From a phage, in the NCBI GenBank assembly GCA_017686895.1, contig GCA_017686895.1_4521.1: a stretch of 64,000 nt of DNA; one strand, 5' to 3'. Position 1 is the first letter of the stretch, and each line of letters opens with the position of its first letter. Shown here one piece after another: positions 3,300 to 58,992 of the stretch. The position numbers and the translations under genes were made by a program. The notes beneath the pieces are model-generated. The model was given only the letters and a program-made list of their open reading frames with translations. It ran no database searches and had not been told where the DNA came from.

Positions 3300-3431
3300 G
3301 GTATCTAGGCCTTTCCCGGCCTCTCTAGGCATCATTTAGTTTCTGCCCTTTATAATATATTATCATATCCTTTGATTTCCCCTCCCTGCCCTAGAATTCC
3401 ACAAAACTTTTTAATTTTTTTTCACAAAACT

Positions 3432-3461
3432 GTTTACATCCCTGTTCTTCCGTGGTACTAT
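3432..3461 (+). promoter_or_regulatory. sigma70-type early promoter (approximate coordinates)
   Basis: GTTTAC -35, about 18 bp spacer, TGnTACTAT extended -10. Confidence 0.5.
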
Positions 3462-3503
3462 AAAACTATCAACTACCGATACAGAAAAACCTTGGAGAAT
3501 GAA

Positions 3504-3767
3504 ATGGATAATTACGGTGAACTGTTCAACTTCTTTATGAAATGCGTTCCAGACGATTTCGGACGTACGGTGAATGATATTAAAGTTATTGGACCTGACC
3601 ATCCGATGTTTGAAACTTACGCAGTAATGGGTAATGAAGACGGACAATGGTATACTGTAAAGGTTGTGATTAATATGTTCGCAGCAGAAGGTTATGTTAA
3701 ACTGTCTTCTAAAGTTTACCATGATAATGTCGAAATCGCTGAAGAATATTTCGATAATATGAAATAA
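3504..3767 (+). CDS. hypothetical protein
   Basis: Track ORF 3372..3767; internal ATG at 3504 preceded by GGAGA RBS. Confidence 0.45.
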   Translation: MDNYGELFNFFMKCVPDDFGRTVNDIKVIGPDHPMFETYAVMGNEDGQWYTVKVVINMFAAEGYVKLSSKVYHDNVEIAEEYFDNMK

Positions 3768-7233: not shown

Positions 7234-7263
7234 GTTTACAACAAGATAGGGCTATGTTATAGT
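7234..7263 (+). promoter_or_regulatory. early promoter inside a palindrome (approximate coordinates)
   Basis: GTTTAC, 18 bp spacer, TGTTATAGT; -10 flanked by ATAGGGCTA / TAGTCCTAT inverted repeat. Confidence 0.55.
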
Positions 7264-7291
7264 AGTCCTATCAAATTAAATGGAGACAACA

Positions 7292-8526: not shown

Positions 8527-8556
8527 GTTTACACAATTATAGGACTATGTTATAGT
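8527..8556 (+). promoter_or_regulatory. early promoter inside a palindrome (approximate coordinates)
   Basis: GTTTAC, 18 bp, TGTTATAGT; flanked by ATAGGACTA / TAGTCCTAT. Confidence 0.55.
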
Positions 8557-8584
8557 AGTCCTATTAAAACATGAGGAGAATATT

Positions 8585-18211: not shown

Positions 18212-18418
18212 ATGCTTTACGATTATACTGGAAAATCTGAAGACGGTGTACTTGAACTTTTACCTGAAAGCGCTGAAGATGATGATATGGTGGTGATGTT
18301 TTGTAAAAATGGCCCTGGGGATAAGGGATGGATTTATCTTCGTCAAGAAAATGACCTAATTGTTTTGGACCCTAAACAAGTTGAAGAACTTTATCAACAT
18401 TTAAAACACAATCGGTAG
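18212..18418 (+). CDS. hypothetical protein
   Basis: ATG 18212 after GTGAGGA RBS. Confidence 0.45.
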   Translation: MLYDYTGKSEDGVLELLPESAEDDDMVVMFCKNGPGDKGWIYLRQENDLIVLDPKQVEELYQHLKHNR

Positions 18419-18447
18419 TTTACATCTTGGTAGGACTATGATATAGT
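18418..18447 (+). promoter_or_regulatory. early promoter inside a palindrome (approximate coordinates)
   Basis: GTTTAC, 18 bp, TGATATAGT; TAGGACTA / TAGTCCTA inverted repeat. Confidence 0.5.
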
Positions 18448-18475
18448 AGTCCTATCAAAACGAACGGAGAACAAA

Positions 18476-46400: not shown

Positions 46401-47036
46401 ATGAAAACTACACCAATCACTATCGCTATTGACGCAATCGTAAAACAAGCTTCTTCTTTGGCTACTATGGCCAAAGTAATTAGTCAAAACCCTGCTCGTT
46501 ATAATGCTATTCTAGAAACTCTTCGACGCCCTGGACTGAGTAATTATGAAAGCCGAGTAATTATTACAGGTGTTGGTAAGAACGCTAATATCGCAACTAA
46601 AGCTTCCGAGACTTTTGCTTCACTAGGTATTCCTAGCATGTATTTGAACACCGGGCATTATTCTCATGGCGACGCAGGGTTTATTGCACCTAATGATGTA
46701 TTAGTTCACATCAGTCGTTCTGGTAAGACTGAAGAAATGATAGGTGTTGCTAAACATCTTCGTATGATTCGTCCTCAGGTTAAACAGATTCTGTTACATT
46801 GTAACCCTGACATTCCGCAAGAATACGAAGCTCTTTTTGATTATACGTTCTGTACAGGCATCGCGGTAGAGGTTGATGAGAATTCTCTGGCTCCGACCAT
46901 GTCCACTACATTGTTGTTAGCGCTTATCGATACGTTTGCTATCAACCTTTCGTCTGAACGTGGATTTACCTCTAATGACTTCCTTAAGTTCCACCCTGGT
47001 GGTGCACTAGGTGCCATGTTACGAGGCGAACAATGA
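46401..47036 (+). CDS. SIS-domain phosphosugar isomerase (KdsD/GutQ-like arabinose-5-phosphate isomerase without CBS domains)
   Basis: RVIITGVGKNANIATK, HISRSGKTEE and C-terminal FLKFHPGGALGAMLRG match the KdsD-type SIS domain as I recall it; 211 aa. Confidence 0.8.
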   Translation: MKTTPITIAIDAIVKQASSLATMAKVISQNPARYNAILETLRRPGLSNYESRVIITGVGKNANIATKASETFASLGIPSMYLNTGHYSHGDAGFIAPNDVLVHISRSGKTEEMIGVAKHLRMIRPQVKQILLHCNPDIPQEYEALFDYTFCTGIAVEVDENSLAPTMSTTLLLALIDTFAINLSSERGFTSNDFLKFHPGGALGAMLRGEQ

Positions 47037-47176
47037 AAGCAATAACAATAGGACTTTTACTATTGATGCTTGTCATGACTATCTACTGGAGCTTAACGGC
47101 TCCAGTAATGATTCCGACTCTTATAATCGGATGGATTATGATTGGACTACAAACAAAGTATGAATGCTTTAACTAG
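47033..47176 (+). CDS. small two-helix membrane protein (47 aa)
   Basis: MKAITIGLLLLMLVMTIYWSLTAPVMIPTLIIGWIMIGLQTKYECFN; ATGA overlap with SIS gene; hand-identified. Confidence 0.35.
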   Translation: MKAITIGLLLLMLVMTIYWSLTAPVMIPTLIIGWIMIGLQTKYECFN

Positions 47177-47189
47177 AATAGTGTACAAT
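47165..47189 (+). promoter_or_regulatory. candidate MotA-type middle promoter
   Basis: TGCTTTA box, 12 bp, TACAAT, about 28 bp upstream of ATG 47218. Confidence 0.45.
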
Positions 47190-47217
47190 ACACCTACTTA
47201 CCAATGAGGACCACAAC

Positions 47218-48903
47218 ATGAAAAAAGCTGTTATTCTTGGTGCTGGACTGGCAACTCGTTTGTATCCAATAACGCACCATATTCCTAAGGTGCTTGTTAA
47301 CTATAAACAAGACACTATTCTGAGCAATTTGTATACAATTTATTCTGACCTTGGTGCAGATGAAATTATTGTAGTAGTTCATTCAAAATTTGTTGAAACT
47401 GTTCGAGCTTATTGTGAGCAAGAAGGGTTCAATGTGACTATTCGTACAGTTGATGAAGCGTATGGTTCTGCTTATGCTCTTGCTAAATTATACAAAGATT
47501 TAGATGGCCATAACGTAATTGTTAACTGGTGTGATATTATTCCTGATTTTGGTTCATGGTCTTGGAATGTTAACGCAATCTATGTTAAGGGTGATGAATG
47601 TCGATATAATTTCGATGGTGAAAATATCACTAACGTAGGTTCAACAGGCGGTAATGTTGTAGGAATTTATCAGTTCAAAGACTGGGAATTCTATATGGGT
47701 TCTACTGATGAGGAAATTCATGAATACTGCAAAGGGCGTGATTTCGTAGAATTCCTTTACGGCAGTGCATTCAATAAATCAGAGCTTATGAATCTAATTG
47801 ATTTAGGTGATATGCCTAAACTTGAAAAAGCTCATGAAGTTCGTGAACTTAATCGTAGTTTTAATGCAGTTGAAATTGGTGAAGAAACTGTAACTAAATT
47901 CGCATTAACCGAACAGGGACGAGCTCTTCAGAAAGATGAGATTTCGTGGTATCTTAAAGTGAAATCAGATTCAGTTCCTCAGTTAGTTTCTGTTAATGAA
48001 AATAACTTTGAAATGGAACGCATTAAAGGTAAGCCAGCATTTGAATATATTAAATCCAAATCAAGTCTTGCTCGTCCACAAATTGTTGATGCAATTTTAG
48101 ATGCACTGAAATTCAGCACAGACACTTATTTTGTAAGTCCTGAAACTGTTCGTCGTGATTTCACTAAAGAATTCTATACGAAAGTTATTGATCGTTGTGA
48201 AAGCATTCAACCATTGATTGATTCATTTGGTAAAATCACACATGTGAACTACACTAAGATTGGACGTCTGAAGCCAATGCTGAAACAAGCTTTAGAACAC
48301 CTTATTCGTTATCATAACCGTTCTCAGGGACAGTACTCTGTTATTCATGGTGACCCGAACTTCAGTAATACTATGATTACTGATAACGGCGAAGTCAAGT
48401 TTATCGACCCTCGTGGATATTTTGGCGAAACCAAGATTTACGGGCCAAAATTGTACGATGAAGCTAAAGTGCTTTATGCTGTTTCAGGTTATGATGAATT
48501 CAATGCTAATCCGACCTGGGGACAGTTTACTATTGATGAAACAACTTGTAATGTGACTATTAACATCAATCCATTAATTTACAAATATGGAAAGATGAGT
48601 TCGTTTAACGAGTATCATCATTTGGCGGTGGCAATTATCTGGATTGCATTAGGTGGTTATTTCAAGAATAATCCACTTAAAGCGGTAGCCGCATATTATA
48701 AAGGTATGGAACTTCTGACTAAGCAATTACGCAACATGGGCCGTGTACTTCAAGACGGCTCTATTAGTTATGACGTAGCAGAACCTGTAACGGCTACTCT
48801 GATTACAAAAAATCCTGGTAAATGGGTACTAACTGATAAAGAAACTGGTGTTTCCTATCGTCCAATCGGTGGCGATATCACTCATCAATGGGAACGAATC
48901 TAA
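47218..48903 (+). CDS. bifunctional sugar-phosphate nucleotidyltransferase / APH-ChoK-fold kinase
   Basis: N-terminal AVILGAGLATRLYPITHHIPKVLV (sugar nucleotidyltransferase G-x-G-x-R-L-x-P-x-T motif); C-terminal VIHGDPNFSNTMI and FIDPRGYFG (aminoglycoside/choline kinase Brenner and DxE-like motifs). Confidence 0.75.
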   Translation: MKKAVILGAGLATRLYPITHHIPKVLVNYKQDTILSNLYTIYSDLGADEIIVVVHSKFVETVRAYCEQEGFNVTIRTVDEAYGSAYALAKLYKDLDGHNVIVNWCDIIPDFGSWSWNVNAIYVKGDECRYNFDGENITNVGSTGGNVVGIYQFKDWEFYMGSTDEEIHEYCKGRDFVEFLYGSAFNKSELMNLIDLGDMPKLEKAHEVRELNRSFNAVEIGEETVTKFALTEQGRALQKDEISWYLKVKSDSVPQLVSVNENNFEMERIKGKPAFEYIKSKSSLARPQIVDAILDALKFSTDTYFVSPETVRRDFTKEFYTKVIDRCESIQPLIDSFGKITHVNYTKIGRLKPMLKQALEHLIRYHNRSQGQYSVIHGDPNFSNTMITDNGEVKFIDPRGYFGETKIYGPKLYDEAKVLYAVSGYDEFNANPTWGQFTIDETTCNVTININPLIYKYGKMSSFNEYHHLAVAIIWIALGGYFKNNPLKAVAAYYKGMELLTKQLRNMGRVLQDGSISYDVAEPVTATLITKNPGKWVLTDKETGVSYRPIGGDITHQWERI

Positions 48904-49289
48904 TGCACCGTGTAGAAAACATGCTTAATCTTTGTTTTGATGTCGATGATTGTATAACAGAGTGGAATAACAATCGTGATTACGTGAACTTCAAACCAGA
49001 CGTCGAAATGGTGTCTGCCATTAATGCCCTGTATGATGCAGGGCATACCATAACGCTTTACACTGCTCGTGGTATGAAGTCAGTAGGTCCTGGTCGTATA
49101 GCAATTGACATTCTCCCAAGTCTGATTCAGAACTTGGCAAACATTGGCTTGAAGTACCATAATTTGCTAACACATAAACCAGTATATGATTGGATTATCG
49201 ACGACAAAGCTATGCGTCCTGACGAATTCAAAGCTCTTATGAATAAAGGCGAATTCGAAACATTTAAATCATATAAACCGAATCTATAA
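48903..49289 (+). CDS. HAD-superfamily phosphatase
   Basis: Motif I FDVDDCIT (DxDxT), motif III-like K-x-DWIIDDK; TAATG overlap with upstream gene. Confidence 0.65.
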   Translation: MHRVENMLNLCFDVDDCITEWNNNRDYVNFKPDVEMVSAINALYDAGHTITLYTARGMKSVGPGRIAIDILPSLIQNLANIGLKYHNLLTHKPVYDWIIDDKAMRPDEFKALMNKGEFETFKSYKPNL

Positions 49290-49335
49290 TAATTTAAGTA
49301 AGACCTGCAAAAACCATCGCATCAATTAACGCGAG

Positions 49336-50505
49336 ATGCAAAAAATGAATACTTTTAAAATCGGAACGAATTTTGATTTAGCTCTTCTTGATAAAATCGT
49401 AGAGCTCAATAAAACCTATCCTAATAGCTTGATAAACGAAGTATATGGCTCTACAAGAGAAATGGCTTTTGTAGCAGCCAGACCTGATTTTAGGCTTCCT
49501 GACGTTGACAAAAAGATGTTAGAAGATTACGTTAAACGTTGTAACGAATTAGGTATTTGCTTTAACTATACACTCAACACGATAAATCCTGGTTCAAAAA
49601 GAGAACTAGTTGAGTGGAAGAAGAAAGCTATTCAGGATTATGTTCAGTATCTTTGGTCAATAGGCGTATGGCGTATTACTATCGCTAACCCTGTTGTTAT
49701 GGAAATTGTTCGTGAAGTCAATAAAGATATTGAGATTGAAGTTTCAACAATTCTACATGTCGATGCGGTAACTCAAATCAAATACTTACATGACCAATAT
49801 AACATCAAAAAGGTCTGTTGCGGAATTCATAAGAACCGTTCAGTTTCTTTCCTGAAGCGTGCAGCAGAGTTTTGCAATAAGAACAATATAATATTTGAAG
49901 TTCTTGTAAATGAGTTCTGTTCTAATGCTGGTAAAGGGTATACAACACATTGTAGTTATCGTGACTCTTGCTATATTTTCCATAGTACTGATGTTACAGC
50001 TGATGATGCTAAATCCTTAAATGGATATCCAATGCAACACTGCATTAAAGCTCGTGATACAGACCCATTTAACTGGTTGAGAACTCGTTTTGTTCGTCCT
50101 CAAGATTTGAAACTTTATAATGATATTGGTATCACTCAATTCAAAGTTTCAGGACGTACAGGTAGCACAGACTACATTTTGAAAGTTCTTGAAGCATACG
50201 CTTCTGAAAAGTTTGAAGGTAATTTGTTAGAACTGTGGAAGCCTTTAGAGACTATTTTCACTCTTGAAAATGAGACTGAGTTTTCACATACAGTAAATAT
50301 TGAAACCTCTTTGTTAGATGGCTTTTTAGAAAAAAGGTGGTTCAGACATCCAGATTTTGATTGTGCTAATGAAATCTGTGGGTCAACGTGTACATATTGT
50401 GAAAGGTATTATAAACGTCAATTATCTAAAAACGGGTTAGCAGAAAACTCCATATCTATTATTGATATAACTAACTCTGATGACGCTTTGAGGTACCCGG
50501 AATGA
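49336..50505 (+). CDS. Cys-rich protein with peptidase-U32-like features (tentative)
   Basis: EVLVNEFCSNAGKGYTTHCSYRDSC resembles the U32 signature region; many cysteines including C-terminal CGSTCTYC (Cx3Cx2C); family not confirmed. Confidence 0.3.
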   Translation: MQKMNTFKIGTNFDLALLDKIVELNKTYPNSLINEVYGSTREMAFVAARPDFRLPDVDKKMLEDYVKRCNELGICFNYTLNTINPGSKRELVEWKKKAIQDYVQYLWSIGVWRITIANPVVMEIVREVNKDIEIEVSTILHVDAVTQIKYLHDQYNIKKVCCGIHKNRSVSFLKRAAEFCNKNNIIFEVLVNEFCSNAGKGYTTHCSYRDSCYIFHSTDVTADDAKSLNGYPMQHCIKARDTDPFNWLRTRFVRPQDLKLYNDIGITQFKVSGRTGSTDYILKVLEAYASEKFEGNLLELWKPLETIFTLENETEFSHTVNIETSLLDGFLEKRWFRHPDFDCANEICGSTCTYCERYYKRQLSKNGLAENSISIIDITNSDDALRYPE

Positions 50506-50741
50506 TTTCTAGAAAAAGTTTTAATTATAAACTTAACGAAGAGATTTTGACTATGAAACTGAACACTAACGAACAAATTCTTAAAAAGGCCCTTATGGGC
50601 CTGTTTGAAACCAAAGCGGCTAAAGTGATTAAAGAACCTGTTCAATTGGAATACTACACTGATGCATTCCTTCATAGTGTTCTTGGAAGTATAGATTCTG
50701 AAGCTTTACGTTATATCAACATTGTCAAGAAATTCAAATAA
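50502..50741 (+). CDS. hypothetical protein
   Basis: 79-aa ORF, ATGA overlap. Confidence 0.4.
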   Translation: MISRKSFNYKLNEEILTMKLNTNEQILKKALMGLFETKAAKVIKEPVQLEYYTDAFLHSVLGSIDSEALRYINIVKKFK

Positions 50742-50783: not shown

Positions 50784-51500
50784 ATGGGAAAACATAACAC
50801 AATGAAATATATCAAAGCCGCAGATTTTCAAACCGCATTTAAAGCAGTCAATCGTGAAATTTTAGAAAACCCCGAATTCGTAACTGATTCTCGTATTGGA
50901 CGTTGTAATGAAATTGGGTCTATGACAGTAGTTGTTGACACTCCATCATCATTCAAAATGACCGACCCACGTATTAACCGCATCTCTTATGAATATGCCG
51001 AAGACTTCTGGAAGTTTATGATTTCTGGTGGTACCAACGCAGAAGAAGCGTTTAAGGCATATCCTAATGTCGCTAAATTTATTTCTAAACCAAAATCAGA
51101 TGTTTTGCCGGCGAACTTCAACACTTTCTATGGTCCTCGCATTGCGGCCCAATTACCAACTCTTCTAAAAGAACTTAAAGAAAAACCTAACTCTCGAAGA
51201 GTTGTGTTCCAAATTCTAGAAAGTTCTGATCAGGCTTTGCTTGATTCGGACGAAACACTTGAATATCCATGTACTGACTCAGTAACTTATTATATTCGTG
51301 ATGGTAAGCTTTATACCCACTGTCATATGCGTTCTCAGAACTGTGCTGTTGTTATGCAGTTGGATTTTTATCTCCAAGGAAAATTACTTCATTATATCGC
51401 TAACGAATGCGGTGTAGAAGTTGGTGATTATACTCATACCATGGTAAGTGCCCATGTGTTTGAACGTGATTTTGATTATGTTAAAGGATTCCTTGACTAA
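50784..51500 (+). CDS. 42: thymidylate-synthase-fold pyrimidine hydroxymethylase (dCMP hydroxymethylase-like, divergent)
   Basis: PNSRRVVFQI, catalytic-Cys region YPCTDSVTYYIRDGKLYTHCHMRSQN and VSAHVFERDF align to the PDSRRGIMIY / MCTNTVQYLIRD..NMRSND / GSLHVYSRHF blocks of T4 gp42 as I recall them. Confidence 0.65.
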   Translation: MGKHNTMKYIKAADFQTAFKAVNREILENPEFVTDSRIGRCNEIGSMTVVVDTPSSFKMTDPRINRISYEYAEDFWKFMISGGTNAEEAFKAYPNVAKFISKPKSDVLPANFNTFYGPRIAAQLPTLLKELKEKPNSRRVVFQILESSDQALLDSDETLEYPCTDSVTYYIRDGKLYTHCHMRSQNCAVVMQLDFYLQGKLLHYIANECGVEVGDYTHTMVSAHVFERDFDYVKGFLD

Positions 51501-56524: not shown

Positions 56525-56842
56525 ATGAAAACCATCGATTGTAAAGCAGAATTTAAGATTTTTTATCACGGTTCAAGTAGTTCAGCTAACATCGAAAACA
56601 TGCTTTGTCCTCCTGAAGAAACAGGAGTTCTGTCTGAAACTGGACGTAAGAAAAACTTGGATCGTGTATTCTTTACTGAAGATATCGGTTTAGCAAAGAT
56701 TTATGCAGGACGAGCAGCACGCTCTTATGGAGGTGAACCACGTCTCTATCGAGTAATTTCTCCGGTAGATGTAGTTCAAATGAATGATACTAAAGGCGCT
56801 ACAGTTTATCACGCTGAATGGGCATTTTGCGAGGAAATATGA
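56525..56842 (+). CDS. hypothetical protein
   Basis: 105-aa ORF. Confidence 0.5.
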   Translation: MKTIDCKAEFKIFYHGSSSSANIENMLCPPEETGVLSETGRKKNLDRVFFTEDIGLAKIYAGRAARSYGGEPRLYRVISPVDVVQMNDTKGATVYHAEWAFCEEI

Positions 56843-57030
56843 GCAAATTAACTAAAGTTACTTTTATCGGTTGGTTTAAAAGCGGTGAGATGTTCACTAA
56901 AGATATCATGTTATCAGGTGATCGCGAAGAAATCGAGTGGGTTACGGTACAACTTGCTGAAGTGAACAATGCATTAGTTAAAGCATTTATTAATGACGAG
57001 AAAGTTTTTGAAGCTGATTTCAGAGGATAA
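56839..57030 (+). CDS. hypothetical protein
   Basis: ATGA overlap start within track ORF 56818..57030. Confidence 0.45.
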   Translation: MSKLTKVTFIGWFKSGEMFTKDIMLSGDREEIEWVTVQLAEVNNALVKAFINDEKVFEADFRG

Positions 57031-57246: not shown

Positions 57247-57276
57247 GTTTACAAGCACCACATACTGTGTTACTAT
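57247..57276 (+). promoter_or_regulatory. early promoter (approximate coordinates)
   Basis: GTTTAC, 18 bp, TGTTACTAT. Confidence 0.5.
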
Positions 57277-57304: not shown

Positions 57305-57673
57305 ATGAAAAAATTAATCGCTTTAGCAATGGTATTTGGATTAACCGGATGTGGTGCCCATGGCTTTATCCCTAATAACGTCGGCCAATTGATTTACAAT
57401 CCGAATGTTAAACAGTACGACCAACCTAAAGTTGAAGTGGAAGACCCGGTTACTGTAGGTAATCGAATGATTCAAGCTGATGCCCATGCTCAACGTTATC
57501 GTGACTCTGATACCGTAGCATTGTCAAAAGAACAACGCGTTAAAGAACATTGTCTACAGGCTACTGAAATCGCATTCATTCGCTATGTTGAAACAACTGG
57601 TAAAGAGCCTACCCAGAAACAAATCGCGAATAACTACGTCCAGTGTATTGAACGTTTAAACAAATTTAATTAA
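57305..57673 (+). CDS. lipoprotein
   Basis: Signal peptide with lipobox LTGC (MKKLIALAMVFGLTGCGA). Confidence 0.55.
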   Translation: MKKLIALAMVFGLTGCGAHGFIPNNVGQLIYNPNVKQYDQPKVEVEDPVTVGNRMIQADAHAQRYRDSDTVALSKEQRVKEHCLQATEIAFIRYVETTGKEPTQKQIANNYVQCIERLNKFN

Positions 57674-57676
57674 TTG

Positions 57677-57706
57677 GTTTACACCAAAGTTAAAATAAGA
57701 TACTAT
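57677..57706 (+). promoter_or_regulatory. early promoter (approximate coordinates)
   Basis: GTTTAC, 18 bp, TACTAT. Confidence 0.5.
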
Positions 57707-57734
57707 AAACATAACAAATCAAGAGGAAATTAAC

Positions 57735-57983
57735 ATGGAATTATTCGTAGCTAGTTCAGTAGCAGTTTTAATCGCAGGTATTGGTTCAATCATCATTTAC
57801 ATGTTGCCTTGGGTAATCGCACTTATTCGTGGCACAAAAAGCACAACAGCAATCTTCTTTGTATCTTTACTCTTTAACTGGACGATGGTTGGTTGGATTG
57901 GAACTTTAATTTGGTCTATCGTTGCCGAAAAGAAATCTGCTCAGCAGCCTCAACAAGTAATTATTATTCGCGAAAAAGAATAA
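57735..57983 (+). CDS. superinfection immunity (Imm)-family membrane protein
   Basis: YMLPWVIALIRG ... FNWTMVGWIGTLIWSIV resembles the Imm family pattern as I recall it; two TM helices. Confidence 0.5.
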   Translation: MELFVASSVAVLIAGIGSIIIYMLPWVIALIRGTKSTTAIFFVSLLFNWTMVGWIGTLIWSIVAEKKSAQQPQQVIIIREKE

Positions 57984-58046
57984 ACTTGTTTACATTATAG
58001 ATGGACTATAGTATAGTAGTCCTATCAAATTAACTAAGGAGTTAAA

Positions 58047-58340
58047 ATGAAAAAGTTATCATTGGCAGCAATCTTACTTGCAGTATCATGTGCACCGGCT
58101 CCAGTTACGGCAGGTTATGATAAAGACCTCTGTGAGTGGTCAATGACTGCAAATCAAGAAGATGTTGAACAACAAATCTTCTCTGATATCATGAACATCA
58201 CTAAACGAGACCGTCCTAATATGGTTAATAAAGTTGTTGAACAACTTAAGTCTGGCGGTATCATGCAGTACAATTATGTTTTGTATTGTGACCCTAATTT
58301 CGATAACAAAGATATCGTAACCGAAATCACAGGTGAATAA
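58047..58340 (+). CDS. sp: spackle periplasmic protein
   Basis: Signal peptide then AGYDKDLCEWSMTANQEDVEQQI ... SGGIMQYNYVLYCD, matching T4 Sp as I recall it. Confidence 0.85.
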   Translation: MKKLSLAAILLAVSCAPAPVTAGYDKDLCEWSMTANQEDVEQQIFSDIMNITKRDRPNMVNKVVEQLKSGGIMQYNYVLYCDPNFDNKDIVTEITGE

Positions 58341-58341
58341 T

Positions 58342-58992
58342 ATGATTTATTACATGCACAAAAACGCACCATTTAAATATGGTAAATTTCCTAATGCACA
58401 ATGTTATAATATAACGCCGAACGAAAATAATAACGGATATCATATTGGTGTAATTTTTGTAATTGTTAAAGATAACGAAATCGTTGCCTGGGCCGATTTT
58501 AAAGGTACAACATATGATGTTAATCCTGTGCCTTTCACATATTACAATATAATGGATTTGGCATATGATTATAATTGGTTTAATCATGACGCGTTGGCTC
58601 ATATTGAAGGTGTAGGATTTGACATCTCTTATTCTAGCTATTCATTATGTCCTATGAGCAGGGCTCATGGTAAAGATGCATCATATCTTTCATTTCGGAA
58701 ACGTGTAAACTTCAAACGTAGTACAGAGTATGTTGGCGGACTCTTTGTTAAAGATAATAAAATAACCCGTATTAGTTATCCTTTAAGTGTAGGTCAAAAA
58801 GATGTTGATGTTGATTTAGACTTAACTGAAAATAACATTAATCGTATTGCTTCTGTATATTTTGATATCGATGAAAAAATTGTAGTGTGTGGATACGAAT
58901 TACCACCTGAAGAAAAGGCTGAAGCAGTTGAAGTCGAATTAGAAATTTCTGTTGATGACCAAATATTTAATGCATTTATGAATCGAGGTTAA
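58342..58992 (+). CDS. hypothetical protein
   Basis: ATG 58342 two nt after sp stop. Confidence 0.5.
   Translation: MIYYMHKNAPFKYGKFPNAQCYNITPNENNNGYHIGVIFVIVKDNEIVAWADFKGTTYDVNPVPFTYYNIMDLAYDYNWFNHDALAHIEGVGFDISYSSYSLCPMSRAHGKDASYLSFRKRVNFKRSTEYVGGLFVKDNKITRISYPLSVGQKDVDVDLDLTENNINRIASVYFDIDEKIVVCGYELPPEEKAEAVEVELEISVDDQIFNAFMNRG

Follow-up and report, generated by a model that had tools for sequence, protein, structure and literature searches.

Why do three small genes for envelope proteins lie in a row in the interval between genes 41 and 61 of a T4-type phage, and was this row put together for superinfection exclusion? The question arose from a stretch of 64,000 nucleotides (GenBank assembly GCA_017686895.1, contig GCA_017686895.1_4521.1), referred to here in its full length as the window, in which three + strand open reading frames of 122, 82 and 97 codons are packed into positions 57305-58340, with a gap of 61-63 bp before each of them (Table 1). 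A first-pass annotation had described the three products as a lipoprotein, an Imm-like membrane protein and Spackle, and had implied that a modification island had pushed imm out of its T4 slot beside gene 43. We find it probable, at roughly 85%, that the row is the imm.1-imm-sp array of an RB69-group (Mosigvirus) T4-type phage and that it arose by relocation of imm.1-imm.

Table 1. Positions of the genes and promoter motifs discussed in the text
Feature	Position in the window	Strand	Description
gene 43	43649-46360		
gene 42	50784-51500		
promoter motif before imm.1	57247-57276	+	GTTTACA-N17-TACTAT
imm.1	57305-57673	+	122 aa; DUF5481, phrog_1754, lipobox LTGC
promoter motif before imm	57677-57706	+	GTTTACA-N17-TACTAT
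imm	57735-57983	+	82 aa; Imm_superinfect, two hydrophobic segments
promoter motif before sp	57988-58022	+	GTTTACA-N17-TATAGT, stem-loop included
sp (spackle, T4 gene 61.3)	58047-58340	+	97-aa precursor; T4_Spackle profile

The row is known from RB69 and its relatives

The 3.8 kb around the row are 99.0% identical at the DNA level to vB_Eco_mar005P1 and 98.2% identical to RB69, and this colinear block is common to ~155 Mosigvirus phage records at 98-99% identity over 3.8 kb. The RB69 record AY303349 (NC_004928) already labels the three genes imm.1, imm and sp, and the vB_Eco_mar005P1 record uses the same three names; gene content, nomenclature and order were therefore known already from the RB69 annotation. 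In RB69 the order is 41 - ORF041c - ORF040c - dmd - 61.4 - imm.1 - imm - sp - 61.2 - ... - 61. The window has identical genes, order and flanks and differs from RB69 by point differences only, with a single residue changed between the two Imm.1 proteins (99.2% identity). The row is restricted to the Mosigvirus group, with ~155 of the roughly 900 sp-carrying records. A search of NCBIfam gave no match for any of the three proteins. The interval between genes 41 and 61 is a plastic region that also holds unrelated accessory genes, among them those for Dmd and AdfA and ORFs without assigned function.

The second and third genes correspond to T4 imm and sp

The middle protein matches the Pfam family Imm_superinfect (PF14373) with an E value of 1.8e-15 and 56.9 bits against a cut-off of 27.9, so that the profile search proposed in the first-pass annotation does find similarity to Imm. 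It also matches the PHROG family phrog_1039, "immunity to superinfection" (1.2e-30), and aligns with T4 Imm over its full length at 64% identity (83 columns, one 1-residue gap), including the conserved C-terminal QVIIIREKE. Mean Kyte-Doolittle hydropathy is 2.0-2.5 over residues ~5-31 and 1.0-1.6 over residues ~38-64, with RGTKS between the two segments, and Imm is predicted to be a membrane protein with two helices, as in T4 Imm. Beyond "Imm-like", the middle gene is a true full-length Imm ortholog. T4 genetics link Imm to superinfection exclusion and to resistance to secondary membrane damage, and T4 Imm appears to be a plasma-membrane protein (PMC6832632).

The third protein covers positions 1-96 of the 96 of the Pfam T4_Spackle profile (PF25676, 1.1e-42), also matches phrog_1586, has the length of T4 Sp, and is 66% identical to it without gaps. 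It matches the solved T4 Spackle chains 6x6o (1.4e-39) and 7cn6 (1e-39). The signal peptide, MKKLSLAAILLAVSCAPAPVTA, occupies residues 1-22 and is followed by GYD as in T4 (VTA|GYD), and the cysteines stand at 15, 29 and 81, with Cys29 and Cys81 corresponding to the disulfide pair in the helical bundle of T4 Spackle. T4 Sp contains a disulfide, has a mature form of 75 aa, and in this mature periplasmic form makes a stoichiometric complex with the gp5 tail lysozyme and inhibits the enzyme (PMC7677548). With 66% identity and all structural hallmarks retained, this mechanism should be safely transferable to Sp of the window.

The first gene encodes a lipoprotein assigned to Imm.1

In the N-terminus of the first protein, MKKLIALAMVFGLTGC, a KK n-region is followed by a hydrophobic core and then by the lipobox L-T-G-C at residues 13-16, the last of which is Cys16. 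This signal, MKK-LIALAMVFG-LTGC, is that of a bacterial lipoprotein (an Lgt/LspA substrate), scored here as a charged n-region, a hydrophobic core and [LVI][ASTVI][GAS]C inside the first ~25 residues. The lipoprotein reading of the first gene is therefore upheld, as are the Imm-family and Spackle assignments and the description of all three products as envelope proteins, for which each carries the sequence features. Its treatment as an extra member of the row is not, since the protein is the ortholog of T4 Imm.1, which is the neighbour of Imm in T4. It matches DUF5481 in Pfam (3.7e-9, 37.3 bits against a cut-off of 27) and phrog_1754 in PHROG (5.1e-29, whole protein covered), and it is 32% identical to T4 Imm.1 with a BLASTP E value of 1e-18. 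T4 Imm.1 shares the lipobox (as LAGC), the length, two conserved cysteines and the place directly upstream of imm, and differs in having two cysteines more.

These features extend through the family. A lipobox together with two or four mature cysteines was found in 29/29 family members scored, and Cys83 and Cys114 are invariant in an alignment of eight sequences. The sole lipobox exception seen is the metagenomic variant P0002, in which LAGF replaces the motif and the lipobox cysteine is lost. In E. coli, a residue other than Asp at position +2 predicts sorting of a lipoprotein to the outer membrane. Imm.1 of the window has Gly at +2, and the family members scored have G, V, A, Q or S and never Asp, so Imm.1 is predicted to reside in the outer membrane, facing the periplasm.

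AlphaFold was run twice on Imm.1, with alignments of 3 and 21 sequences, giving a mean pLDDT of 60-63 in which only the C-terminal hairpin is confident. The model has helices at 48-67, 75-98 and 104-120 and a disordered N-terminal linker; the last two helices form the hairpin (pLDDT 85-89), which bears the conserved Cys83 and Cys114. Foldseek searches with the model, whose confidence is modest (mean pLDDT 62.6), returned nothing at E<=0.001 from the PDB and only Imm.1 relatives from BFVD.

An exhaustive HMM search of 1.84 billion representatives retrieved 8 Imm.1-family proteins at E<=0.001, and the family is small and phage-restricted. DUF5481 recognises only the T4/RB69 branch, whereas phrog_1754 also takes in forms of 146-176 aa from Moonvirus, Jiaodavirus, Dhakavirus, Gaprivervirus and Serratia phages. 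Imm.1 is far more divergent from its T4 counterpart than the neighbouring proteins are (32% identity, against 58-85% for Dmd, Imm, Sp, AdfA, gp41 and gp43). In the literature searched, Imm.1 is named in a single paper, as a gene-content marker, with no paper on its function and no mention of DUF5481.

Imm.1 and imm stay together in T4-like phages

We compared the imm neighbourhoods of T4, RB69 and representatives of five further genera (vB_EcoM_RZ, Merlin, fDHCT2, JD18 and Serratia phage 4S). In all seven reference phages, a phrog_1754 lipoprotein gene lies on the same strand within ~150 bp of imm. It immediately precedes imm in Citrobacter phage Merlin (Moonvirus), Klebsiella phage JD18 (Jiaodavirus) and Serratia phage 4S, and immediately follows it in vB_EcoM_RZ (Gaprivervirus) and the Dhakavirus-like fDHCT2; adjacency is thus maintained although the order of the two genes flips between lineages. 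In many lineages the two genes are tightly spaced, from a 4-bp overlap, seen in one metagenomic lineage, to 32 bp, and the gap in the window is 61 bp. Among phage records at >=60% identity, 657 carry Imm.1 and 656 carry Imm.

A sample of 80 IMG/VR loci, collected by Imm alignment, extends the comparison. Twenty were classed as T4-like (Imm identity of at least 48%, a large contig, and gp43, gp42 or uvsX near), and the other 60 as further Imm_superinfect loci. An Imm.1-family gene lies within ~150 bp of imm in all 20 of the T4-like loci, and the adjacency is also found in the metagenomic contigs L089-L092. Near the imm genes of the 60 loci outside the T4-like group, no lipoprotein gene was found, whether of the Imm.1 family or any ORF with a lipobox (0/60); the lipobox expression recovered 28 of 29 true Imm.1 proteins in a control. 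The proposition that every Imm-family protein has a lipoprotein partner is therefore rejected.

The converse proposition, that Imm.1 always needs Imm, fails on Serratia phage LC53 (Winklervirus). This phage has an Imm.1-family lipoprotein gene after gene 43, and an Imm-family gene is absent from its whole genome of 172,075 bp (best HMM E value 0.008; nothing by tblastn). Since LC53 has Imm.1 only, a partnership with Imm is not obligatory for Imm.1.

The pair beside sp appears to have moved from gene 43

The T4 order is 43 - imm.1 - imm - 42 - b-gt - segA - uvsX - 40 - 41 - dmd - 61.4 - sp - 61.2 - 61.1 - 61. The statement that imm lies next to gene 43 in T4 is accordingly right about the 43-42 interval and inexact about the neighbour, which is imm.1. 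In T4, imm and sp are ~6 kb apart, whereas in the window imm adjoins sp and is preceded by a separate promoter motif; sp itself occupies the same 41-61 interval in both. Because the lipoprotein is Imm.1, the neighbour of Imm in T4 too, it is the two-gene imm.1-imm module, rather than a lone imm, that appears to have changed place in the RB69 group. In all sampled T4-like loci the pair lies directly after gene 43, with the exception of Mosigvirus and contig L089; in the latter, which encodes the LAGF form of Imm.1, the gene before the pair belongs to the Frd.3 family, which makes a third context.

Genes 43 and 42 of the window are separated by genes for an arabinose-5-phosphate isomerase (SIS domain), for an NTP-transferase of 561 aa, and for phosphoheptose-isomerase-like and U32-peptidase-like proteins. 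Together these make up the cytosine-arabinosylation cluster published for RB69 (PMC6024577, PMC13326640), and the claim that a modification island holds the slot beside gene 43 is borne out. A tblastn search between genes 43 and 42 of the window detected no remnant of imm or imm.1. Displacement of imm by the island, implied in the same claim, is an unneeded step. Indeed, Dhakavirus-type loci and Serratia phage 4S have the imm.1/imm pair and the arabinosylation island together beside gene 43, and since these phages keep both, the presence of the island is not enough to displace imm.

The changed position is also the one point in favour of another reading, in which the arrival of the island would have cost the phage its true imm, and the middle gene would be a diverged paralog of Imm with another function. 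We regard this as highly improbable and reject it on three grounds: the alignment to T4 Imm, in which identity is high over the full length and QVIIIREKE is retained; the single copy, as Imm and Imm.1 each occur once in the window by tblastn with seven Imm and eight Imm.1 queries, leaving no second Imm-family gene; and ordinary divergence, the distance from T4 being equal to that of Sp, gp43 and AdfA. Furthermore, the middle gene accompanies an Imm.1 ortholog.

Early-promoter motifs mark the likely joints of the proposed relocation

The window holds 17 copies of the motif GTTTAC-N18-TANNNT, every one of them on the + strand, where 1.28 would be expected and 100 shuffles gave 7 at most. Each gene of the row has such a motif upstream (Table 1), as the first-pass annotation had noted, and as sequence motifs the three early promoters are real. 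The early-promoter consensus of T4/PST-type phages is TTTACW-N17-TAYWAT (PMC4122927); the sites at 57248 and 57678 fit it exactly, and the site at 57989 (TATAGT) has one mismatch. Among the three, an evident stem is seen only at the sp promoter, where a 6-bp stem-loop (GGACTA, 58003-58008; TAGTCC, 58017-58022) overlaps the -10 box, and none is seen at the imm.1 and imm promoters. Near-identical promoter cassettes are scattered at many places in these genomes. The cassette of sp, promoter and stem-loop together, is 55-59% identical to those at 7234, 8527 and 18418 (background 37%).

The stop codon of 61.4 is immediately followed by the promoter of imm.1, at the position which the sp promoter has in T4. 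This imm.1 promoter most resembles the T4 promoter between 61.4 and sp, with 62% identity (background 37 +/- 11%). For the imm promoter motif T4 has no counterpart, since its imm.1 and imm are separated by 11 bp and have a promoter in common. Promoter/stem-loop cassettes (PeSLs) have been proposed as sites of shuffling in T4-type genomes (PMC2839356, PMC4122927).

Together, these observations are consistent with the following course of events. The ancestral imm.1-imm module would have lain directly 3' of gene 43, as it does in almost every other sampled T4-like phage of enterobacteria, and would have been transferred as a unit to the position between 61.4 and sp. The similarity of the promoters suggests that the transfer probably went through recombination at early-promoter cassettes. 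In the inserted module, imm.1 would have been followed by a promoter, and imm by a promoter/stem-loop cassette; the whole would have landed between the old sp promoter and sp.

This relocation may have had no consequence for function. The place of imm.1-imm beside sp could be a neutral by-product of promoter-cassette shuffling, with no functional "exclusion operon" and with genes that act independently, like the distant imm and sp of T4, and we lean towards this view. The confinement of the row to Mosigvirus is in line with it, as are the separate promoter motif of each gene in place of one fused transcription unit, the plasticity of the 41-61 interval with its many unrelated accessory genes, and the abundance of near-identical promoter cassettes elsewhere in the genome. 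None of our observations argues against it. Neutral clustering is compatible with the relocation of imm.1-imm proposed above, from which it differs only on whether the clustering was selected.

Possible roles of the three proteins at the envelope

Because each of the three genes has an early-promoter motif of the sigma-70 type, imm.1, imm and sp are presumably expressed right after infection, and their products would be exported to the envelope. The roles of Imm and Sp, the two superinfection-exclusion proteins of T-even phages (reviewed in PMC6832632), are transferred here from T4 by homology, at 64-66% identity. In the periplasm, Sp would bind and inhibit the gp5 tail lysozyme of later phages, and thereby would block penetration by the tail tube and lysis from without. 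Imm, with its two helices in the inner membrane, would stop superinfecting DNA from reaching the cytoplasm. Lu and Henning reportedly found, in the Journal of Virology in 1989, that imm carried alone on a plasmid excluded T4; if so, Imm would not need Imm.1.

A lipid anchor would tether Imm.1, probably to the inner leaflet of the outer membrane, and its disulfide-stapled helical hairpin would be exposed to the periplasm. We infer that Imm.1 most likely accompanies imm as an accessory factor in envelope protection or exclusion. A more specific proposal, that Imm.1 is a third component of T-even envelope defence acting with Imm and Sp or in parallel to them, is put forward tentatively and is, in our estimate, doubtful.

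Imm.1 could also have a separate task at the envelope, such as masking of an outer-membrane receptor in the manner of T5 Llp or another kind of envelope protection, unrelated to exclusion by Imm, and its adjacency to imm would then reflect a shared plastic early region. To this possibility we give rather less than an even chance. Imm.1 is retained without any Imm in LC53, and outside the T4-like phages the Imm family works without a partner of the Imm.1 type. Furthermore, the fast divergence of Imm.1 is as expected for a protein with a variable partner, whether a receptor or a competitor's tail, and receptor blocking by phage lipoproteins is an established strategy, exemplified by T5 Llp, a small early lipoprotein exposed in the envelope of the infected cell (PMC9586334). 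However, the adjacency of imm.1 and imm survives a change of order and at least two changes of place, which exceeds the prediction from a shared neighbourhood, and the tight spacing of the two genes in many lineages suggests co-expression. The likeness to Llp is one of functional analogy only, as a small early envelope lipoprotein: no sequence or fold similarity of Imm.1 to Llp, Cor or other characterised lipoproteins was detected, with DUF5481 the only Pfam match at E<=0.1 and only Imm.1 relatives from Foldseek with the model of modest confidence.

Implications

Imm.1 is a conserved early lipoprotein of ~650 sequenced T-even-type phages and lies almost always beside imm. The coexistence of the arabinosylation island and the imm module beside gene 43 in other phages corrects a tempting causal story, in which the arrival of the one would account for the departure of the other. 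If Imm.1 is indeed a third component of envelope defence, the RB69 group would have assembled three layers of defence in one early row, and the near-universal linkage of Imm.1 and Imm, which has outlasted a reversal of gene order and two or more relocations, would be the mark that this partnership has left in the genomes. Should Imm.1 act in exclusion, it would complete the account of the means by which T-even phages close the envelope to competing phages.

Variation in Imm.1 and Spackle

In the complete Winklervirus genome of Serratia phage vB_SspM_LC53 (OP617331), gene 43 is followed by a gene for an Imm.1-family lipoprotein. A Spackle gene is present too, but no Imm-family gene is detectable anywhere in this genome. 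In metagenome contig SRR30535852_365571 (L089), imm still lies 8 bp downstream of an Imm.1 variant, and the gene upstream of that variant belongs to the Frd.3 family, being neither gene 43 nor 61.4. The variant has LAGF where the lipobox is expected and, since this lacks the Cys, the predicted product is soluble in the periplasm. The T4 imm.1 gene is labelled 'iduronate sulfatase' in RefSeq record NC_000866, as is Imm.1 in the record of Yersinia phage fPS-2. Because nothing in the 125-aa T4 Imm.1 lipoprotein supports this name, the label seems to be a mistaken annotation that was then propagated.

The T4 Spackle signal peptide reads L-A-S-C at residues 12-15, compatible with a lipobox; mature T4 Spackle begins at residue 23 (PMC7677548). 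At the same position, the signal peptide of the window Sp has A-V-S-C, which is not lipobox-compatible. The lipobox-like motif is thus not conserved and probably goes unused.

Coordinates of the features (window positions unless another record is named)
Feature	Position	Remarks
Early promoter/leader cassette, ~100 bp	3400-3506 (promoter 3432-3461)	86% identity to T4 imm.1 promoter/leader
87-aa gene	3504-3767	phrog_2678; downstream of this cassette
Promoter-plus-stem-loop copies	7234-7290, 8527-8583, 18418-18474, 57988-58044	GTTTACA..TAGGACTATG.TATAGTAGTCCTATCAAA
Arabinosylation cluster	46401-50741	between genes 43 and 42
Gene 42 homolog	50784-51500	
ORF041c, 124 aa	56095-56469	between gene 41 and dmd; own GTTTAC-type promoter
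ORF040c, 105 aa	56525-56842	between gene 41 and dmd; own GTTTAC-type promoter
dmd	56839-57030	Pfam Dmd 1.8e-21; antitoxin against RnlA/LsoA-type toxins
Sp signal peptide	58047-58112	
61.2 (AdfA, anti-DarT factor A)	58342-58992	Pfam 1.1e-120
T4 imm.1	NC_000866, 8137-8514	
LC53 Imm.1-family gene	OP617331, 26176-26595	
Imm.1 variant and imm	L089, 718-1351	46% identity to window Imm.1

Promoter Cassettes

The likeness of the early promoter/leader cassette to the T4 imm.1 leader extends as far as the RBS TTGGAGAATGAAATG, and the gene that it drives in the window is unrelated to imm.1. Most of the Tequatrovirus genomes listed have 6-9 copies of this imm.1-type cassette, and the window copy has matches of ≥95% in just 13 phage records, well below the total of ~155 Mosigvirus records. 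The four promoter-plus-stem-loop copies share 55-69% mutual identity over a background of 37%, and a similar copy precedes dmd in T4. This second cassette resembles the PeSLs known from other phages of the T4 type (PMC4122927).

Gene Content of the 43-42 and 41-61 Intervals

The interval between genes 43 and 42 encodes an arabinose-5-phosphate isomerase (SIS), a 561-aa NTP-transferase (RB69 ORF53_52c), a phosphoheptose-isomerase-like protein, a U32-peptidase-like protein and a 79-aa ORF, and is the already published RB69 cytosine-arabinosylation cluster (PMC6024577, PMC13326640). The gene 42 homolog shares just 25% identity with T4 dCMP hydroxymethylase, whereas the neighbouring replication proteins share 62-85% with their T4 counterparts. 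This low identity fits the reported RB69 product, which is 5-hydroxycytosine and not 5-hydroxymethylcytosine (PMC13326640).

Upstream of dmd, the sole family matches of the RB69-group ORFs ORF041c and ORF040c are PHROGs 10668 and 2110, with no match in Pfam or NCBIfam searches; by gene order, T4 has no counterpart of either between gene 41 and dmd. The imm.1-imm-sp row is bordered on both sides by known counter-defence genes, dmd and 61.2, and the 41-61 interval therefore groups together genes for competition and counter-defence.
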